Of a DNA stretch of 64,000 bases, positions 36,848 to 49,998 are shown in pieces. Position numbers and translations under genes: made by a program. Position 1 is the first letter of the stretch. Each line of letters begins with the position of its first letter. Under the pieces are notes generated by a model. The model saw nothing but the letters and a program-made list of their open reading frames with translations. It had not been told where the DNA came from and made no database searches. This DNA is from an uncultured Thermotogaceae bacterium. GTDB lineage: Bacteria; Thermotogota; Thermotogae; MWEM01. The DNA is taken from the NCBI GenBank assembly GCA_964580185.1, contig CAZOJQ010000002.1, forward strand, positions 52,599 through 116,598, in the 5' to 3' direction.

Positions 36848-38248
36848 ATGGATTTTCAGTCAGTGATCGATCAAATACCAGACTTTCAGCGTTTTTTCCG
36901 CGTCGACGAAATGGATCGACGCTCTTTGCAACTAGCCAAGGATTATCCAGAGCGTGTGGAGGTTATGGAACGAGGAAGGTCCCGGGAAGGGAACCCGATC
37001 TATGTGATCAAAATCGGGAGTGGTTCCAAAAATGCGCTTCTGTTCGGATGTCCCCATCCCAACGAACCAATTGGCGCGATGATGCTTGAAGTGCTGAGCG
37101 AATTATTGGCAAAAAATGACCCGGCTCTACAGGAACTTGACTATACCTGGTATCTGATCAAATCGATCGATATCGATGGAACGAAACGGAACGAAGGGTG
37201 GTTTGACGACTCTTCTTCCATTCGGAAGTATGCCGAACACTTCTATCGTCCGGCCAGCTTCGAACAGGTGGAATGGACCTTTCCCGTAGATTACAAAACG
37301 CTCCACTTCCACAAGCCTCTTCCCGAAACCCAAGTATTGATGGAAATCATCCAAGAGAAAAAACCGGTCTTTATGTATTCGCTACACAATTCGGGATTCG
37401 GAGGGGTGTACTATTATGTTTCCGGAACCCTAACGGATTCGCTCTTTGATCTCTTTCAAGCCATTCCAGGCCATTTTCAGCTGCCCTTGAATCTGGGGGA
37501 ACCGGAGGTGCCTTATCTCAAACCCTTTGCTCCCGCGATTTTCCCGATGTTTGGGATATCCGATGAATATGATTATCTGGAAAAGCATCTGCCCGAAGGC
37601 ATGGACCCGGCAACCGTGATTCAAGCAGGGACCAGCTCGGATGATTATGCGAAGAAGATGGCGGGCACGTATTCATTGGTCTGTGAAATGCCGTATTACT
37701 TTGATCCCAGGGTCAACGACCAAACAACCGTTGAACAAAGCCGCCGGCACTTTCTTGAAAAGGCGGTTCAGTCGGGAAAAGAAAATTACGATCGGTTGCA
37801 TGCCATCTTCTCATCGATAGAAAGCGCCATTCATAAGAAAGACTCTCCTTTCTTCACTGCGGTTCATCATTATCTGTCCATGATTCCCAACCATTTGGCC
37901 GCTCAAGAGAACTGGATCAAAACCGACGAGACATTACAAAGACCAGCGACCAAGGCGGAGGAGTTCGACAACCTGTACGCGCAAAAGTTCTACAACCTGT
38001 TAATGCAAGGCATGATGAGGAGAATGATTCGGGAAAATCTCACAACCGCGCCAGGGAACGCATCGATGAAAGAGGCGTTGGAAAATGCCGATCGGTATTT
38101 TGAAGAAACGGTCGACTTCCTTGAGAAAAACCTCACCTATCAGACGATCCCCATCAAAAAACTGGTCAGCGTTCAAATGCTGGCGGGGTTGCATACCATG
38201 AAAACCATCCAAGATCAAAACCAAGCAAATCCCGAGGGTATGTCTTGA
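36848..38248 (+). CDS. M14-family zinc carboxypeptidase-like protein (no signal peptide) embedded in the opp operon
   Basis: HxxE zinc motif in GCPHPNEPIG, and downstream SLHNSGFGGVYYY typical of the M14/AstE-AspA fold. 466 aa with a long helical C-terminal region. Confidence 0.6.
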   Translation: MDFQSVIDQIPDFQRFFRVDEMDRRSLQLAKDYPERVEVMERGRSREGNPIYVIKIGSGSKNALLFGCPHPNEPIGAMMLEVLSELLAKNDPALQELDYTWYLIKSIDIDGTKRNEGWFDDSSSIRKYAEHFYRPASFEQVEWTFPVDYKTLHFHKPLPETQVLMEIIQEKKPVFMYSLHNSGFGGVYYYVSGTLTDSLFDLFQAIPGHFQLPLNLGEPEVPYLKPFAPAIFPMFGISDEYDYLEKHLPEGMDPATVIQAGTSSDDYAKKMAGTYSLVCEMPYYFDPRVNDQTTVEQSRRHFLEKAVQSGKENYDRLHAIFSSIESAIHKKDSPFFTAVHHYLSMIPNHLAAQENWIKTDETLQRPATKAEEFDNLYAQKFYNLLMQGMMRRMIRENLTTAPGNASMKEALENADRYFEETVDFLEKNLTYQTIPIKKLVSVQMLAGLHTMKTIQDQNQANPEGMS

Positions 38249-39228
38249 AAGCGTATCTAATCAAACGGGTTTTGGAATTAATTCCCGTCTTTTTCATGAT
38301 CTCTTTGATCATTTTCCTTTTGATCAACCTCATGCCTGGCGATCCCTTGCTCCAGATGCGGATGGACAACCCCCGCGCCGTAATGACCGATCCTCAGCGA
38401 ATCCAAGCCTTGCGCGAATACTATCGTCTGGACGATCCGCTGTTCATCCGGTATCTCACATGGTTGGGCAGCGCCTTCACGGGAGACTTCGGCTTTTCCA
38501 GCCTCTACAAAGTGCCTGTCTGGGATATGATTATCTCTCGACTGCCCAATACCCTTTTGTTGACCATCGTTGCCTGGTTGATCGGATTGGCGGTGGCTTT
38601 ACCAATTGGGATCTACTCTGCGGTCAAAAAGTACTCAGTATTCGATTATTCCGCCACAGTAACTGCCTTTGTGGGCATGTCGCTGCCCAGTTTTTGGTTT
38701 GGCCTTATGGGGATCATCATCTTTAGCGTTACCCTGAAATGGCTTCCCGTATCAGGGATGGAAACCTATGGGTTGACTGAGCCTTGGGCCATCTTTTGGG
38801 ATCGGGTCCGTCATTTGATTCTCCCAGCGTGTGTTTTGGGATTTGTGCAAGTCGCTTCCTGGGTACGGTACATTCGCACCTCTCTCTTGGAAGTCCTTGA
38901 CCAAGACTATGTCCGAACGGCGTATGCCAAAGGCGTTCCGGATCGGAAAGTGATTATCCGCCATGCTTTGAAAAATGCGATGATTCCAATCATTACCATT
39001 ATCGCGCTGGATATCCCGTATTTTTTTGGAGGGGCGCTAATCATCGAGACGATCTTCTCTTGGCCTGGGATGGGTCGGTTAATGTACCAAGCGGTAATCG
39101 GGAGCGATTACAATCTCGCCATCAGTTGCCTGATGTTCTTGACGATGATTACGTTAATCTCCAACTTAGTAGCGGATTTTCTCTATGTTCTTGTCGATCC
39201 GAGAATCCGAATCACACGGAAGGCGTAA
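38245..39228 (+). CDS. Oligopeptide ABC transporter permease (OppB/DppB-like)
   Basis: BPD_transp_1 EAA-like loop and 6 TM. 327 aa. Confidence 0.85.
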   Translation: MKAYLIKRVLELIPVFFMISLIIFLLINLMPGDPLLQMRMDNPRAVMTDPQRIQALREYYRLDDPLFIRYLTWLGSAFTGDFGFSSLYKVPVWDMIISRLPNTLLLTIVAWLIGLAVALPIGIYSAVKKYSVFDYSATVTAFVGMSLPSFWFGLMGIIIFSVTLKWLPVSGMETYGLTEPWAIFWDRVRHLILPACVLGFVQVASWVRYIRTSLLEVLDQDYVRTAYAKGVPDRKVIIRHALKNAMIPIITIIALDIPYFFGGALIIETIFSWPGMGRLMYQAVIGSDYNLAISCLMFLTMITLISNLVADFLYVLVDPRIRITRKA

Positions 39229-39238
39229 GGAGGAAACG

Positions 39239-40174
39239 ATGCGTCCATCACGGTTTTCGTACAAAAGCAAAATTCAAAAGATCGAAGAGCAATCGTCCTC
39301 CATCAATATCGTAACCTATCGAAAATTGGTATGGATGAAGTTCAAAAGCCATAAATTAGCACTATTCGGAGCGATCGTTCTGCTTGGAATGCTCGCGTTT
39401 TGCTTCATTGGACCATGGTTCACCTCCATCCAATACTACGACATGGATTTCTCCTCCATCTTCGTGCCGCCAATGACGCCCGGCCATATTTTGGGAACCG
39501 ATGAACTGGGGCAGGATACCTTTGTTCGACTGATGTATGGGGGAAGAATCTCTTTGCTGGTAGGAATCTGCTCGGCATTATTCACAACCATCATCGGCAT
39601 GGGGATCGGATTGTTCTCGGGATACTTTGGCGGTATGATCGACCGAATTCTCATGCGTTTTGTCGATGTCATGTTATCCATCCCGATGTTCCCAATCCTG
39701 CTAACCTTGACCATGGTCATTGGATCAGGGCTCTGGAATATCGTTCTGGTTCTTACCGTTTTCGGATGGATGGGTGTGTCCCGTTTGGTCCGGGGTTTGA
39801 CCTTGTCCATTCGAGAATCCGAATATGTGGTCATCGCAAGAGCTCTTGGCGTGAAGACCATACCGATTATTCTGCGGCACATCATTCCCAATGTTCTTCC
39901 GGTGGTGATCGTTTCAGCCACCCTCAACATGTCCTACGCCATCTTGGCAGAATCTTCCCTCAGCTATTTGGGTTTGGGGATCCAACCTCCTTTGCCTTCA
40001 TGGGGCAATATGCTGCAAAAATCCATGAATTATATCCTGGGAACACCCATGGGGATCAGCCCCTGGTGGCTGACCTTTTTCCCGGGGCTGTTCATCTTTA
40101 TGACTGTACTCAATGTAAACTTTCTCGGTGATGGACTGAGGGATGCCTTGGATCCCAAGTTTACCAGCGAATGA
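39239..40174 (+). CDS. Oligopeptide ABC transporter permease (OppC/DppC-like)
   Basis: Start at MRPSRF, preceded by AAGGAGGAAA. N-terminal OppC-type extension, then 6 TM. Confidence 0.85.
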   Translation: MRPSRFSYKSKIQKIEEQSSSINIVTYRKLVWMKFKSHKLALFGAIVLLGMLAFCFIGPWFTSIQYYDMDFSSIFVPPMTPGHILGTDELGQDTFVRLMYGGRISLLVGICSALFTTIIGMGIGLFSGYFGGMIDRILMRFVDVMLSIPMFPILLTLTMVIGSGLWNIVLVLTVFGWMGVSRLVRGLTLSIRESEYVVIARALGVKTIPIILRHIIPNVLPVVIVSATLNMSYAILAESSLSYLGLGIQPPLPSWGNMLQKSMNYILGTPMGISPWWLTFFPGLFIFMTVLNVNFLGDGLRDALDPKFTSE

Positions 40175-40184
40175 TCAGGAAAGG

Positions 40185-41225
40185 ATGAGATGGATGCGTC
40201 AAAAAAGCGATACAGCCTTGCAAGATCCTGAAACCATTCTCAGGGTTAAAGATCTGGAAATCTCATTCAAGACCCAATTCGGAGTCGTAACTCCTGTCGA
40301 TGATGTTCGATTCGATTTGAAAAAAGGGGAGACATTGGGAATTGTTGGGGAGTCGGGATGCGGAAAGACCATCACGGCTTTTTCGATCCTGAGATTATTG
40401 CCCAAAAATGCCATCTTGGGAACAAGGACGGAAATATCCTTTGAAGGGAAGAATGTAGCCCATTTCAGCAAAGAACAGCTCCAGAAGATTCGCGGAAAGA
40501 AGATTTCCATGATCTTTCAAGAGCCAATGACCTCATTGAACCCAGTGTATACAGTTGGGCAACAACTTTCCGAAGTGTTCATGTTGCACGAAAGGGTAAC
40601 CGAAAAGCAAGCATGGTCCAAAAGCCTTGAACTGCTTCAAATGGTTCGGATTCCGGAACCAAGCAAACGGATTCGCGATTATCCCCACTTATTGTCGGGA
40701 GGGATGAGGCAACGGGTAATGATCGCGATGGCATTGGCATGCAAACCATTGCTGTTGATTGCAGACGAACCAACGACGGCCTTGGATGTAACCATTCAGG
40801 CGCAAATCCTTGAATTGATCGATGAGTTGAGAACCAAACAGAATACAACCACCATCATCATTACACATGATCTGGGTGTTGTGGCGGAGATGTGCGACCG
40901 AGTGATCGTTATGTATGCTGGGCAGATCGTGGAAGCTGCCGAAATCTTTGCGCTGTTTTCTAACCCCAAACACCCGTATACCCAAGGCTTGATTCACTCC
41001 ATCCCTCGAATTGAAGTACCCAAACAGGATCAAAAAAGACTCCACGTGATTCCGGGGTATGTTCCGCACCCTTCCGCTTTTCCCAAAGGTTGTCGGTTTC
41101 AACCAAGATGCCAACAAGCGATGGAACGGTGTTTGCTGGAAATCCCCCCTGTTCGATCCATTCAAGGGCACCAAGTGAAATGCTGGCTCTATGAGCAAGA
41201 GGGGGACAGCCATGAACCCACCTAA
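40185..41225 (+). CDS. Oligopeptide ABC transporter ATP-binding protein (OppD-like)
   Basis: Walker A GESGCGKT, signature LSGGMRQR, and C-terminal oligopeptide-type extension with Cys motif (CRFQPRCQ). The start among MRWMRQK methionines is ambiguous. Confidence 0.85.
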
Positions 41226-42222
41226 GACTCTATGTACAGTTCAGAATCTGACAAAATGGTTTCCCGTCAAAGGGGCTCGGATTTTCGGAGAAAAGCCTTT
41301 TCTCAAAGCAGTCGATGGAGTGGATTTTCAGGTGCAAACCCGGGAGACATTGGGGCTCGTTGGAGAGTCGGGATGCGGAAAAACCACCGTCGGTCGAACC
41401 TTGATGCGGATCCATGACCCAACAGCAGGGGTCTTTCTCTATTATCCCGAGGATGCACAGAAGCACCCTGTTGATATCTTCAGTCTGAAAGCGCAACCTC
41501 TCCGAAAAGTAAAACGGCAAATCCAGATGGTCTTTCAGGATCCATACGCATCGCTAAACCCCAGAATGACAGTCCAAGACATCATTTCCGAAGGAATCCG
41601 GGCCAATCGGATGGTACGCTCCAAGAAAGGGATCATTGACCATGTTGCCGATATTATGGAAAAAGTAGGTCTGCGACCAGAATACATGAAACGGTATCCC
41701 CACGAGTTCTCAGGAGGGCAAAGGCAACGGATCGGAATTGCGCGCGTGATGATCATGAGGCCGCGCTTGGTGATCTGTGACGAACCGGTGTCAGCGCTGG
41801 ATGTTTCGGTTCAAGCACAAATCATCAATCTGCTGGAAGACTTGAAAGAAGCCTTTGATCTTACCTACCTCTTCATTGCGCATGATCTGTCGGTTGTGAA
41901 GCATATCTCTGACCGCATCGCCGTGATGTATCTGGGAAAAATCGTGGAAACCGCAGACACAGAGACTCTCTTTTCCCGTCCGCTGCATCCCTATACGGTG
42001 GGGTTGCTTAGCGCCATTCCTGTTCCGGATCCCCGCTTTCGAAAGAAAGAACAACGGGCCTTACTGACCGGAGATATCCCGTCCCCGATCAATCCACCTG
42101 ATGGTTGTCGGTTTGCCAAAAGGTGTCCGTACGTTATGGACCGTTGCAACCGGGAGAACCCTTCATGGGTCGAGCGGGAATCGGGCCATTTCGTCTCGTG
42201 TTTTCTGCATCAATCCGATTAA
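41212..42222 (+). CDS. Oligopeptide ABC transporter ATP-binding protein (OppF-like)
   Basis: Walker [10 protein letters not shown], signature FSGGQRQR, and C-terminal CRFAKRCP motif. Start at MNPPKT with an AGAGGGGGA SD. Confidence 0.85.
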   Translation: MNPPKTLCTVQNLTKWFPVKGARIFGEKPFLKAVDGVDFQVQTRETLGLVGESGCGKTTVGRTLMRIHDPTAGVFLYYPEDAQKHPVDIFSLKAQPLRKVKRQIQMVFQDPYASLNPRMTVQDIISEGIRANRMVRSKKGIIDHVADIMEKVGLRPEYMKRYPHEFSGGQRQRIGIARVMIMRPRLVICDEPVSALDVSVQAQIINLLEDLKEAFDLTYLFIAHDLSVVKHISDRIAVMYLGKIVETADTETLFSRPLHPYTVGLLSAIPVPDPRFRKKEQRALLTGDIPSPINPPDGCRFAKRCPYVMDRCNRENPSWVERESGHFVSCFLHQSD

Positions 42223-42286
42223 CAATACCTCATTGATCGGTCGAAACTCGAAAGCAGAAAGGGGTATTTTCATTCGAAACAATCAG

Positions 42287-42315
42287 TTGACAGAGGCCCA
42301 ATTTTGTGATATACT
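42287..42315 (+). promoter_or_regulatory. Consensus sigma-70 promoter (TTGACA - 17 nt - TGaTATACT)
   Basis: Perfect -35 TTGACA at 42287-42292, a 17-nt spacer, and an extended -10 TGATATACT. Read directly. Confidence 0.65.
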
Positions 42316-42357
42316 CGTAAAGTAAGCAAAAATCCTACAATAAAGGAGGCGACGCGG

Positions 42358-42462
42358 ATGTTCAACAATATGACACGAAATCGTAGCTCTATGATCGGTA
42401 ATGCTACTGTTATCGTGGGATTGGTCTGTCTCGTCGCGCCTGAAAGGAATGCTTTGTTGTAG
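42358..42462 (+). CDS. Small hydrophobic peptide (34 aa) MFNNMTRNRSSMIGNATVIVGLVCLVAPERNALL
   Basis: AAAGGAGG SD 7 nt upstream of the ATG. The consensus promoter is ~45 nt upstream and an intrinsic terminator immediately downstream. One predicted TM helix. Below the ORF-track size cutoff. Confidence 0.45.
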   Translation: MFNNMTRNRSSMIGNATVIVGLVCLVAPERNALL

Positions 42463-42487
42463 GATCCGAACAACAAACGAGAAGAAA

Positions 42488-42528
42488 CAAGAGGGCTGTG
42501 ACGAATCATAGCCCTCTTTTTTTTGCCA
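42488..42528 (+). terminator. Rho-independent terminator (AGAGGGCTgtgacgaatcatAGCCCTCT + T8)
   Basis: 9-bp GC-rich stem with a 12-nt loop, followed by TTTTTTTT. Confidence 0.65.
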
Positions 42529-42548
42529 AAATCATAGGAGGTGTACGA

Positions 42549-42671
42549 ATGAGAAGGAAAGGGTATCATCAGGGAGAACGGGCAGAAAAACATCAGCAGG
42601 TGATCCGAAAAAAGGAAGAGGTGATTTTCAATGCAAGGGAGATCCATGAAAAACCGTGGGTCGGAACGTAA
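42549..42671 (+). CDS. Possible small basic protein (40 aa) MRRKGYHQGERAEKHQQVIRKKEEVIFNAREIHEKPWVGT
   Basis: ATAGGAGGTG SD 6 nt upstream of the ATG. Lies between the terminator and the ABC ATPase gene and overlaps the 67-aa ORF 42631..42834 in another frame. Could be a leader element rather than a protein. Confidence 0.25.
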   Translation: MRRKGYHQGERAEKHQQVIRKKEEVIFNAREIHEKPWVGT

Positions 42672-42808
42672 TCGAGCGAAAGTGACGCAGTTTCGATTTG
42701 CGCAAGCCCAGAAAAAGAAAGAACGGACAAATAAGGCAGAGAACCATTCAGAACCATTTCGACCGAATCGTTGGATTCCATCAGGGACCGAAGAAGAAGG
42801 AGTGAATC

Positions 42809-43627
42809 GTGATGACGAAAAAAGATCCAGATAAGGCTCTAGAAGTACATAGTGTCGATAAAATATTTATCAAACGAAAGAACAAGCAGATCAAAGCGGT
42901 GGATCAGGTGCAGTTTTCGATAGGGAGAGGGGAGATCTTCGGTGTTTTGGGGCCGAACGGATCCGGGAAATCAACATTGATCCGAATGATATCGACTCTT
43001 CTGGTACCCGACCAAGGGACAATCGAGGTATTCGGATATGATTCAGTGAAAGAAGCGATGATGGTCCGCAAACTGATCAATCGGGTATCCGCGGAAGCCA
43101 GTTTTTTCAAAAAGCTGTCTGCAATGGAAAATCTCCTATTTACTGCCGGGTTATATGGAATTCCCAAACCCTACGCCCGGAAGAAATTGATGGAGATCTT
43201 TGAACGAGTCGGCCTTCCCGCGAAACGGGTGCATGATCCGTTGGAAGATTTTTCCCGCGGGATGCAACAAAAAGTGGCTATAGCGCGGGCGTTTTTGACG
43301 ACCCCAGCGCTCCTCCTTTTGGATGAACCGACAACGGGACTGGATCCAAGGGCGAAAAAGGAAGTGCAAAGCCTGATCCTCGAGATCCAAAAGGAACATC
43401 AGACAACCGTACTTTTAACCACACACGATATGGAGGAAGCAGATCAACTCTGTGAGCACGTTGCGATTATCCACGATGGAAAGATCGCTGCCATCGGCAC
43501 CTCTCAGGATTTGAAGAAGAAAGCTTCCCGGAACGGATCGGTTTGCACCTTGGAAGAGGTCTTTATGTTCTTCACAGGGTCCCAATTGGTCCAATATGAA
43601 GATGAGATGATTGCTGAGGTGAGTTGA
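42809..43627 (+). CDS. ABC transporter ATP-binding protein (single NBD, DrrA/ABC-2 exporter type)
   Basis: Walker A GPNGSGKST, signature FSRGMQQK, Walker B LLLLDEPT. GTG/ATG start with a GAAGGAGTG SD. Confidence 0.85.
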   Translation: MMTKKDPDKALEVHSVDKIFIKRKNKQIKAVDQVQFSIGRGEIFGVLGPNGSGKSTLIRMISTLLVPDQGTIEVFGYDSVKEAMMVRKLINRVSAEASFFKKLSAMENLLFTAGLYGIPKPYARKKLMEIFERVGLPAKRVHDPLEDFSRGMQQKVAIARAFLTTPALLLLDEPTTGLDPRAKKEVQSLILEIQKEHQTTVLLTTHDMEEADQLCEHVAIIHDGKIAAIGTSQDLKKKASRNGSVCTLEEVFMFFTGSQLVQYEDEMIAEVS

Positions 43628-43629
43628 TC

Positions 43630-44454
43630 ATGGGAAAGGTTTTTCAAGAAGCGCGCGCTGCGTGGGCCTTTATCGAACGGAATTTCAACCTGGTCAAACG
43701 GTATTGGAAATGGGAACTGGTCTTCTTTGTCTATACCGTGGCCAATTCGGTAACGATGGGCTTCATAGGGAAAGGTATAGAGAACTTCAGCGGCGTGGTT
43801 GTAGATACACAATACTTAATTCTATACATGCTTTTAGGGTCCATCCTCTGGGGATATCTGTCCATCCTTTTTGAAGTGGTGGCCGAAACAGTTGCATGGG
43901 AGCGATGGGAAGAGACGATCGAATACACATTTATGGCGCCAGTATCTCGAGCCACACACTTGTTGAGCGTCTGTGGATTCAGCATCTTTTATGGGCTCCT
44001 CCGCAGTGGATTGATCCTTTTGGTTGTGTCCGTTTTTTTCAATCTGGATCTTCAGGGCGCAAACATTTGGGCCGCAGGCGGAGTGCTCGGAATCGCCAGT
44101 CTATCCTTTATCGGGTTGGGTATGATCGCATCCATTCTGCCGTTAATCTCCCCGGAAAAAGGAGTGCAAGTGGTCCACATCTTTCAGGCGCTGTTGCTCA
44201 TGTTTTCGGGTGTCTATTATGAAGTGGAAGTTCTGCCCCATTGGATGCAGATGGTCGGACGGATTTCTCCCGCGACCTATGCACTGCGTGGGATGCGCGC
44301 AGCCATTTTGGAAGGAGAAGGGTTTTTGTCCCTGTGGATGCATTGGACCCCCTTGTTGCTCATGGGGATCATTATGCTTCCTATGGGGATCCTGATCTTC
44401 TCGTGGATGGAAACCTACGCCAAACGCCGCGGTTTGTTGAAACGGAACGGGTAA
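43630..44454 (+). CDS. ABC-2 family transporter permease
   Basis: 6 TM, ABC-2 type. Start at the ATG right after the ATPase stop, with a GAGGTGAG SD. The ORF track begins at an upstream TTG. Confidence 0.75.
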   Translation: MGKVFQEARAAWAFIERNFNLVKRYWKWELVFFVYTVANSVTMGFIGKGIENFSGVVVDTQYLILYMLLGSILWGYLSILFEVVAETVAWERWEETIEYTFMAPVSRATHLLSVCGFSIFYGLLRSGLILLVVSVFFNLDLQGANIWAAGGVLGIASLSFIGLGMIASILPLISPEKGVQVVHIFQALLLMFSGVYYEVEVLPHWMQMVGRISPATYALRGMRAAILEGEGFLSLWMHWTPLLLMGIIMLPMGILIFSWMETYAKRRGLLKRNG

Positions 44455-44616
44455 CCCTCCGAAAACAGCTTGAAATCTTGGTTCTTGCTGATGCCCCCTG
44501 TTGTGGAAAATCCCTTTTTTTGGGGTATTGCTTTATCCACGGCATTTGTGGTATATTTGGGGTAGGAAAAAACCGTGGATCCATGGGAAGATTCTACAGA
44601 AGGAGGGGGGATTACT

Positions 44617-44889
44617 GTGAACAAGAAGGAAATGGTTGACAAACTAGCAGCTGAAGCAAGTGTTTCCAAGAAAGAAGCGGGAAAACTCCTTGACTCATTC
44701 ATCAAAGTAGTAGAAGATGAATTGGCTACAGGAGGCAGTGTGCGTTTGGTGGGATTCGGTAGTTTTGTTGTTAAGCAAAACGCGGCTCGAAAGGGCGTTG
44801 ATCCCCGAACCAAAGCACCCATCAACATTCCTGCGAAAAAAGTGCCGAAATTTGTTCCCGGTAAGGAACTCAAAGAGAGAGTCCGGTAA
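44617..44889 (+). CDS. hup: DNA-binding protein HU
   Basis: GTG start after a GGAGGGGGG SD. MNKKEMVDKLA...GFGSFVVKQNAARKGVDPRTKAPINIPAKKVPKFVPGK is the canonical HU fold with a beta-arm. Confidence 0.9.
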   Translation: MNKKEMVDKLAAEASVSKKEAGKLLDSFIKVVEDELATGGSVRLVGFGSFVVKQNAARKGVDPRTKAPINIPAKKVPKFVPGKELKERVR

Positions 44890-49923: not shown

Positions 49924-49998
49924 TGGCTCCGGCAGAGGGTTTCGAACCCCCAACCCTGCGGTTAACAGCCGCATGCTCTACCGTTGAGCTATGCCGGA
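49924..49998 (-). tRNA. tRNA-Asn (anticodon GUU)
   Basis: Cloverleaf read by hand: UCCGGCA acceptor stem / UGCCGGA + G + CCA. D-arm AGCUCAACGGUAGAGC. Anticodon loop CU-GUU-AA. T-arm GGTTCGAACCC. Encoded CCA. Confidence 0.8.

Follow-up and report, generated by a model that had tools for sequence, protein, structure and literature searches.

Does a short hydrophobic open reading frame (ORF) with a promoter, a ribosome-binding site and a terminator of its own encode a product that acts by itself, or does it serve the genes that follow it? The question is raised by a locus in a 64,000-nucleotide (nt) stretch of the genome of an uncultured Thermotogaceae bacterium (contig CAZOJQ010000002.1 of assembly GCA_964580185.1, positions 52,599 to 116,598; hereafter, the window), in which a 34-codon ORF with these elements precedes genes for an ATP-binding cassette (ABC) exporter of the ABC-2 type. 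An earlier note, made from the sequence of the window, described the unit as a stand-alone, highly expressed mini-gene and offered four roles for its peptide: a small membrane regulator, a type I toxin, an exported peptide, or a leader peptide controlling the ABC pair. The last of these is the one that the evidence supports. Positions 42287-42526 are probably the promoter and 5' leader of the exporter operon, which would act as a ribosome-mediated transcription attenuator.

Leader Architecture and Linkage to the Exporter Genes

The promoter, Shine-Dalgarno (SD) site, 34-codon ORF and terminator described in the earlier note were all recovered in place from the sequence and by a feature scan (Table 1). 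The promoter has a 17-nt spacer, agrees with the consensus at 11 of 12 positions and carries the TG extension; in a consensus scan it was the sole plus-strand promoter-like site within 41000-44000, and transcription would start near 42322. The terminator comprises a 5' arm (42489-42501), a loop (42502-42505), a 3' arm (42506-42518) and a T8 tract (42519-42526), with six G-C pairs in the stem, and the leader stop codon lies 26 nt ahead of it. Since the 3-kb region does not exceed its shuffles in promoter-like or terminator-like sites, these features are rated above chance because the whole arrangement is kept in relatives, not because of site counts.

Relatives were sought by scanning one genome per GTDB species, supplemented with further locus look-ups, and 28 non-identical leaders were curated. 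The same layout was found ahead of orthologous ABC-2 pairs in Thermotogota, Caldisericota, Anaerolineae and metagenome-assembled genomes (MAGs) of Firmicutes, i.e., in at least four phyla. The carriers include Kosmotogaceae, Pseudothermotoga, Thermosipho, Caldisericota, Anaerolineae and other Chloroflexota, Firmicutes MAGs and single loci of other phyla. Among cultivable bacteria, Pseudothermotoga spp. have the locus P0035 and Thermosipho ferrireducens (CP071446) has L095. The shared order is an extended -10 promoter, GGAGG, start codon, ORF, stop codon, terminator and GGAGGTG, with the extended -10 element (TGnTATAAT-like) at the equivalent position 5' of the SD site. The SD-to-start spacing is 5-11 nt and the stop codon lies 5-27 nt ahead of the terminator in 28 of 28 leaders, the ORF itself being 22-35 codons long. 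In dinucleotide shuffles, the probability that the first in-frame stop falls within the 0-30-nt zone before the terminator is 0.04-0.18 per lineage.

The unit keeps its place next to the exporter genes when the surroundings change. Loci L001-L006, with permeases 98% identical to that of the window, have the same gene context and a near-identical leader. In L007 and L010-L012 the permease is 79% identical and the upstream gene is different (an inositol-phosphatase gene, as compared with the Opp ABC ATPase gene of the window and L001-L006); the layout is the same, with an ORF of 30-33 codons and, after the terminator, the order GGAGGTG, small ORF(s), ABC ATPase, ABC-2 permease and HU gene. Loci L093, L095 and L096 have yet other neighbours. 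Across these differing contexts and phyla, the leader unit is always cis-linked to the ABC-2 pair. Moreover, a mere 25-46 nt separate the terminator from the ATPase start in L018, L021, L093 and L095, which leaves no room for a second promoter; the ABC genes would therefore be transcribed by read-through there, and, read-through being obligate in these loci, the unit would be a cis-acting leader rather than a stand-alone gene. In the window itself, a consensus scan, whose reach does not extend to non-canonical promoters, found no further plus-strand promoter-like site in 42316-44000.

Many Anaerolineae and related leaders have tandem terminators about 60 nt apart, both with the 5' arm GGCCGUGGG (L029 231-317, L030 977-1059, L032 2011-2097; also L036, L044, L053 and L079). 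A second attenuation checkpoint is possible in these leaders.

Competing RNA Helices

The putative transcript (42322-42526) folds better than its shuffles (z = -6.2), and in its minimum free energy (MFE) structure the 3' portion of the ORF sequesters both the SD site and the AUG by forming a long helix with them, a feature that the earlier note missed. The pairings involve 42332-42345 with 42452-42465, 42349-42354 with 42432-42437, and 42356-42359 with 42428-42431. Four segments can be distinguished (Table 1): region 2, an anti-SD segment within the ORF, is able to pair either with region 1, which contains the ribosome-binding site (helix 1:2), or with region 3 (helix 2:3, the antiterminator), while regions 3 and 4 form the terminator (helix 3:4). 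When region 1 of the window leader was masked and the fold was made without region 4, as if not yet transcribed, the MFE structure was an 11-bp antiterminator (42431-42441 with 42493-42504, U42497 bulged) of -21.2 kcal/mol, versus -21.1 kcal/mol for the terminator hairpin with its flanks. A small hairpin over the stop codon, seen in the constrained folds, is present in the window and L001 only and is thus a clade-specific accessory; in the OFF fold its 5' strand joins the lower stem of the 1:2 helix instead.

To assess covariation, 17 leaders from Thermotogota and Caldisericota were aligned with plain MAFFT (alignment A4); the alignment starts 6 nt before the SD site and was not fitted to the helices. 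RNAalifold recovered from it the SD:anti-SD helix and the terminator, with 90.8% of alignment cells paired, 12 of 16 pairs compensatory and none of 500 shuffles reaching the score. For the antiterminator, 81.3% of cells are paired, versus 30-56% for controls slid by one to three columns, 7 of 10 pairs are compensatory, and the observed covariation score was likewise matched by none of 500 shuffles; when the six leaders of the window clade were analyzed alone, the RNAalifold consensus was the antiterminator. Columns 108-112 of the alignment are common to the 1:2 and 2:3 helices.

The same picture emerges from individual leaders. Region 2 lies inside the ORF in every one of the 28, and in 27 of them the 1:2 and 2:3 pairings, each searched for separately, involve overlapping region-2 segments; compared with dinucleotide shuffles, the median z of the duplex energies is -2.3 for 1:2 and -2.4 for 2:3. 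In a swap test among 14 Thermotogota and Caldisericota representatives, cognate partners gave -23.4 kcal/mol and non-cognate ones -16.7 kcal/mol for 1:2, the corresponding values for 2:3 being -19.4 and -14.0 kcal/mol, and for both duplexes none of 50,000 permutations equalled the observed mean. Concerted changes of all three segments can be followed directly: in Pseudothermotoga L093, region 1 (GGGGGCAUGCAAGGUG) and region 3 (GGGGUUGUGCAAGGUG) are each complementary to region 2 (CACCUUGCA), and in its relative L020 the three have changed together (UGCGAGGUG, CGCCUUGCA and UGCAGGGCG); in Anaerolineae, UCGCAG/CUGCGA is replaced by UCGUAG/CUACGA. The helices 1:2, 2:3 and 3:4 are mutually exclusive, and all three are backed by covariation. 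Between regions 1 and 2, the clades have neither sequence nor structure in common, and the length of this segment differs among leaders.

Predicted Leader Translation and Peptide Divergence

The peptides encoded by the leaders cannot be aligned between clades, as exemplified by those of the window (MFNNMTRNRSSMIGNATVIVGLVCLVAPERNALL), L015 (MVRRFRIMAIETLNRVSGDAVLRHAFIRRVRYKLV), L018 (MFKMLLNKVLEKHRKSLPRRHL) and L029 (MRTAMFNVCALGLRDMIGVLVLPCRSAPV). In pairs of close leaders, substitutions are spread evenly over codon positions and the majority of codon changes are non-synonymous. The nucleotides of region 2 are read in another frame in L015-L017, and also in L031, following a 1-nt insertion. 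Judging from these comparisons, it is the act of translation that seems to be selected, and not the encoded product, because the ORF architecture is constant while the peptides diverge, substitutions show no codon-position bias and region 2 is not always read in the same frame. The earlier note had suggested that nucleotide conservation without frame conservation in relatives would point to a regulatory RNA or attenuator. This is partly what is seen: the pairing segments are kept or covary, and the frame differs in L015-L017 and L031, but no leader lacks an open frame of similar length.

The transmembrane-like character noticed earlier is real in the window peptide (Kyte-Doolittle 17-residue maximum 2.09), but it is not a feature of the family, as high values are confined to the leaders of the window/L001, L010 and L029 and most homologous leaders score below 1.5. 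The codon composition of 24 representative leaders is merely rich in Arg, Leu and Val. Macrolide-type +x+ arrest motifs occur in about half of the leaders and are not universal.

Two features of the coding region may bear on ribosome movement. In most lineages the anti-SD CCN triplet is an in-frame Pro codon (42439-42441 in the window; also in L027, L029-L033, L038, L044-L046 and L053). The context of this codon is VAP, VTP, VLP or SPP among leaders of the window clade, and 11 of the 12 Chloroflexota leaders have [R/C]SAP; the triplet is out of frame in L015-L017, L021, L093 and L031. The apparent preference for an in-frame Pro codon may reflect a Pro-dependent pause of the ribosome on region 2. 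Besides, a 9-nt block inside the ORF (UCGUGGGAU, 42413-42421) does not vary, even at third codon positions, among the window, L001-L006, L007, L010-L012, L013 and L014, while the flanking codons are variable. No consistent pairing partner was found for it: the AUCC(U/C)AC motif of the 5' untranslated region (UTR) is complementary to the block in the window and L001, and not in L007, L010, L013 or L014. A role at the RNA level, e.g., as a site of pausing or binding, is possible for the block.

Proposed Mechanism

In the proposed attenuator, the four RNA segments would compete with each other, region 1 being the ribosome-binding site of the leader itself. With no ribosome on the leader, helices 1:2 and 3:4 would form and transcription would stop (OFF). 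During smooth coupled translation, the lead ribosome would cover region 2, or would have just left it, while regions 3 and 4 are being made, so that the terminator would form again (OFF); a terminating ribosome would not block it, because the stop codon, 26 nt ahead, is too far. If ribosomes are loaded but delayed early in the ORF, or are queued onto the start codon, region 1 would be occupied and region 2 free. The latter could then pair with region 3, the terminator could not form, and read-through (ON) would yield a transcript covering ORF2, ORF3 and the ABC ATPase and permease genes.

Both the ribosome state that gives read-through and slowed translation as the natural signal are inferred from this arrangement. 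By analogy with bmrB-bmrCD and other antibiotic-sensing upstream ORFs, slowed elongation caused by ribosome-targeting compounds, e.g., antibiotics, is the leading guess for the signal, though a tentative one. A bolder and rather unlikely proposal is that the leader is an ancient substrate-sensing module travelling with the exporter across phyla, in which the nascent peptide together with the exported small molecule arrests the ribosome. The in-frame Pro codon at the anti-SD segment might contribute to such an arrest, both in Chloroflexota ([R/C]SAP) and in the window clade (VAP, VTP, VLP), and the exporter would be switched on only upon accumulation of its substrate. The terminated leader RNA of about 200 nt, or the peptide, could also act in trans; trans action of this kind is known for rnTrpL, a leader RNA, and peTrpL, a leader peptide.

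Several observations weigh against the attenuator or the signal proposed for it. In the narrow range from SD-18 to AUG+9, the 1:2 duplex of the window is no better than that of shuffles (z = -0.7), its strength depending on a clade-specific extension of the 5' UTR (42332-42345). The lineages compared are related, and the shuffle controls consequently overstate significance. In Anaerolineae alone, regions 2 and 3 hardly vary in sequence, so that the swap test for 2:3 does not reach significance (p = 0.11). The leader ORFs were picked by a script requiring an ORF that starts from an SD site and ends near the terminator, which introduces selection bias into the ORF statistics. As to the signal, the 24 representative leaders share no regulatory codon run and have no arrest motif common to all of them. 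A ribosome would cover region 1 only within about the first five codons, and read-through from a later stall would require queuing of ribosomes, which the model assumes. Finally, for every member of the family, read-through, the transcription start and translation of the leader are deduced from sequence.

Alternative Explanations

The three helices and their covariation would suit any terminator/antiterminator switch, including one in which a ligand (as in a riboswitch), a protein or a tRNA binds between regions 1 and 2 and stabilizes 1:2 or 2:3, the ORF being incidental or a mere holder of SD-like pairing sequences. The invariant UCGUGGGAU block looks like an RNA-level constraint, and the mid-region of the window folds into a hairpin of its own, both of which would fit such a switch. 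We nonetheless find it unlikely. No aptamer core is shared across the representatives, the segment between regions 1 and 2 being variable in length, sequence and structure, though a very small aptamer of a new kind is conceivable; no Rfam family matched the element in the window (down to E <= 10 on 42200-42900) or in 16 related loci; and the 5-11-nt start spacing, the open frame over region 2 and the stop codon 5-27 nt before the terminator would all be left unexplained. The locus does show, on the other hand, the parts expected of a ribosome-mediated attenuator: a short ORF with its own ribosome-binding site, a terminator before structural genes for which no separate promoter was found, an antiterminator sharing the bases of the terminator 5' arm, and an anti-antiterminator with region 1 within the reach of the ribosome and region 2 in the ORF. 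A further alternative also involves ribosomes, in that the attenuator would report their availability rather than their stalling: with many free ribosomes, region 1 would always be occupied and the vacated region 2 would pair with region 3, giving read-through, while poor initiation would allow 1:2 to form and transcription to stop. Occupancy is indeed tied directly to initiation, as region 1 consists of the SD site and start codon, and neither regulatory codons nor a universal arrest motif were found. The stop-to-terminator distance and the position of region 2 inside the ORF fit better with a lead ribosome that masks region 2, and no documented precedent for such a sensor was found, whereas stalling-induced read-through has several (PMC4191407; also studies of vmlR, msrD and other upstream ORFs); we consider this sensor improbable. 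Two classical mechanisms are ruled out: sensing of amino-acid starvation (trpL/hisL type) by the absence of codon runs in the 24 representative leaders, and physical blocking of the terminator by the ribosome (pyrBI type) by the ORF always ending 5-27 nt before the hairpin.

The headline reading of the earlier note, a stand-alone gene whose 34-aa hydrophobic product acts in trans (whether as a regulator in the membrane, as a type I toxin, or as a peptide that is exported by the ABC pair or confers immunity through it), has to contend with the absence of any conserved product. Between clades the peptide is not conserved, in close relatives the substitutions show no codon-position bias and most codon changes are non-synonymous, its transmembrane character is limited to a few lineages, and no Pfam or NCBIfam family matches it. 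What speaks for such a gene is the completeness of the cassette, with its strong promoter, strong SD site and terminator, the 17-residue hydrophobic stretch of the window peptide, and the burial of the SD site, since sequestration of the SD site by a long-range helix between the 5' and 3' parts is also known from type I toxin mRNAs. But the unit was found only together with the ABC pair, in some genomes it lies right against the ATPase start, with no room for another promoter, and neither a conserved hydrophobic toxin nor an antisense RNA gene was found, there being no minus-strand promoter-like site in 42280-42530. The stand-alone gene is therefore highly improbable, and with it the first three roles offered in the earlier note are disfavoured.

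Exporter Genes and Genomic Neighbourhood

The coordinates of the features are collected in Table 1. The ATPase and permease encoded downstream of the leader pass the Pfam ABC_tran and ABC2_membrane models but miss the curated NCBIfam cut-offs for drrA (TIGR01188, 260 bits against 312) and drrB (TIGR01247, 43 bits against 223); for this reason, the pair is, on the basis of its domain matches, a generic ABC-2 exporter with no substrate assigned, and not DrrAB proper, and the earlier designation as DrrAB-type holds in a loose sense only. The true permease start is probably at 43630, because the homologues are 274 aa long. Homologues of the permease with 50-98% identity carry MAG names from Thermotogota, Caldisericota, Chloroflexota, Firmicutes and other phyla, the nearest bearing Thermotogota names; across phyla, the permeases are 50-79% identical to that of the window. 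A sequence search of PDB with the permease gave no match at E <= 1.

The ABC-2 pair does follow the leader, as the earlier note had it, but "directly upstream" was a slightly generous wording, for the terminator and the ATPase gene are separated by about 290 nt holding two further small ORFs (ORF2 and ORF3). Neither peptide is conserved between clades, and a 25-nt indel relative to L001 falls inside ORF3. In the window clade and Kosmotogaceae, this interval is 260-550 nt long and contains one to three unconserved small ORFs. Shortly after the terminator, Thermotogota relatives have a GGAGGTG-like SD site that serves the ATPase gene itself in L018, L021 and L093; by position, the post-terminator GGAGGTG of the window is the equivalent of the ATPase SD site in the insert-free relatives. 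This comparison suggests that the stretch of small ORFs is an insertion in the window clade, and the overlaps of ORF2 with ORF3 and of ORF3 with the ATPase gene are possibly a translational-coupling relay.

None of the three small ORFs has a match in Pfam or NCBIfam. In near-identical contigs, metagenome annotation contains either a 96-aa minus-strand gene or 34-aa, 40-aa and 49-aa plus-strand ORFs. The call of a minus-strand gene over the leader, with no Pfam match on record, is probably spurious. The leader element is absent from Rfam 15: at the gathering threshold, the sole match in the whole window is a tRNA gene elsewhere; at E <= 10, the region 42200-42900 has weak matches only (DapZ and others), all of them merely to the terminator; and the 16 related loci gave only tRNAs.

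The HU gene next to the permease gene is kept in L001-L012 and not in L093-L097. Upstream, the Opp importer genes end 65 nt before the leader promoter, a neighbourhood specific to the window and L001-L006.

Table 1. Coordinates of the leader elements, exporter genes and neighbouring features in the window
Feature	Position	Strand	Details
Opp-type oligopeptide ABC importer genes	38245-42222		two permeases, two ATPases with oligo_HPY domains
Minus-strand ORF	42270-42647	-	125 codons, across the entire leader
Sigma-70-type promoter of leader and operon	42287..42315	+	-35 TTGACA 42287-42292, TG 42307-42308, -10 TATACT 42310-42315
Region 1 (5' UTR, SD site, first two start-codon bases)	42332..42359	+	5' strand of the predicted anti-antiterminator helix P1 (1:2)
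SD site of the leader, AAAGGAGG	42342-42349	+	GGAGG core 42345-42349
Leader ORF, peptide MFNNMTRNRSSMIGNATVIVGLVCLVAPERNALL	42358..42462	+	34 codons; ATG 42358, stop TAG 42460-42462
Region 2, anti-SD segment GUCUCGUCGCGCCU in the 3' part of the ORF	42428..42441	+	predicted partner: region 1 or region 3
Small hairpin UUUGUUGU / ACAACAAA over the stop codon	42453..42477	+	constrained folds; nested in the antiterminator loop
Intrinsic terminator (regions 3 and 4)	42489..42526	+	13-bp stem 42489-42518, 4-nt loop, T8
Region 3 (terminator 5' arm and loop)	42489-42505	+	
Region 4 (terminator 3' arm and U-tract)	42506-42526	+	
Post-terminator SD GGAGGTG and ORF2	42536..42671	+	SD 42536-42542; ATG 42549; ORF2 42549-42671, 40 codons
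ORF3	42631..42834	+	67 codons; overlapping the 3' end of ORF2 and the 5' end of the ATPase gene
ABC transporter ATPase gene (putative regulated gene 1)	42809..43627	+	PF00005 ABC_tran, E = 4.5e-31
ABC-2 type permease gene (putative regulated gene 2)	43624..44454	+	PF01061 ABC2_membrane, E = 6.4e-14
HU-family DNA-binding protein gene	44575-44889		directly after the permease gene
tRNA gene	49927-49998	-	only Rfam gathering-level match in the window

Significance

Annotation pipelines miss the leader or call it variously, as a hypothetical gene for 34 aa or as an antisense ORF of 96 aa, the latter probably spurious, and labelling it as a leader would correct the operon structure. The proposed family of leader-peptide attenuators spans Thermotogota, Caldisericota, Chloroflexota and Firmicutes MAGs, and no prior attenuator of this kind was found for those deep-branching phyla in the literature searched. 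Its design is of interest in that the SD site of the leader is itself one of the competing strands, and the three-way covariation is clean. A compound inducing read-through would offer a direct route to the function of an unusually conserved exporter. If the inducers are indeed ribosome-targeting antibiotics, the element would mark a resistance determinant that is both intrinsic to and inducible in bacteria of anaerobic digesters and the subsurface.

Comparison with Known Systems

Leaders with terminators and antiterminators have been predicted before ABC transporter operons, including that of a multidrug exporter, in Proteobacteria and Firmicutes; the ABC-leaders of Figure 4 are discussed as possible riboswitches and not as leader peptides, and their motifs differ from those of the present leader (Naville and Gautheret, 2010, PMC2965389). 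The main text of that article, supplementary tables aside, does not mention Thermotogae or Chloroflexi. A full-text literature search found no description of the present element, and nothing relevant on a chloramphenicol-induced ABC exporter of Thermotoga or on leader peptides of Thermotogae or Chloroflexi.

In the antibiotic-sensing vmlR, msrD and lmo0919-type systems, which came to light through term-seq and related work, a short upstream ORF (uORF), a terminator and an antiterminator precede resistance determinants, and a stalled ribosome is the signal; the uORFs usually have few codons and control ABC-F ribosome-protection factors. Leaders of this type are the subject of, e.g., PMC9226507. 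The leader described here has the same parts upstream of the genes it would control, but its ORF is of 22-35 codons, the genes encode a membrane ABC-2 exporter, and the carriers are Thermotogota, Caldisericota, Chloroflexota and Firmicutes MAGs.

A parallel in RNA logic is provided by trpL, hisL, pheL and leuL, which have four segments forming 1:2, 2:3 and 3:4 helices. In these leaders, transcription terminates if translation is either absent or unimpeded, and a ribosome held before region 2 leads to read-through. The present leader shares the four-segment logic, and differs from them in the lack of a regulatory codon run (24 leaders), in region 1 being the SD site and start codon rather than the stall codons, and in controlling an exporter rather than a biosynthetic operon.

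BmrCD of Bacillus subtilis, a heterodimer of half-transporters in which transmembrane and nucleotide-binding domains are fused, belongs to a different transporter class from the exporter considered here, whose ATPase and ABC-2 permease are separate proteins. Its control region has a translated leader ORF (bmrB), alternative stem-loops and an intrinsic terminator that together control the multidrug ABC transporter genes; translation of the leader is required, the inducers are translation-targeting antibiotics, and the coding region of bmrB contains the terminator (Reilman et al., 2014, PMC4191407). The two loci have in common a small ORF just ahead of ABC transporter genes, alternative stem-loops with a terminator, and expression of the structural genes via read-through; unlike bmrB, the leader ORFs described here end 5-27 nt short of the terminator, and their own SD site and start codon make up region 1. 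By this analogy, the leader of the window would work like bmrB and the trp-type leaders, while sequence kinship with bmrB is not to be expected.

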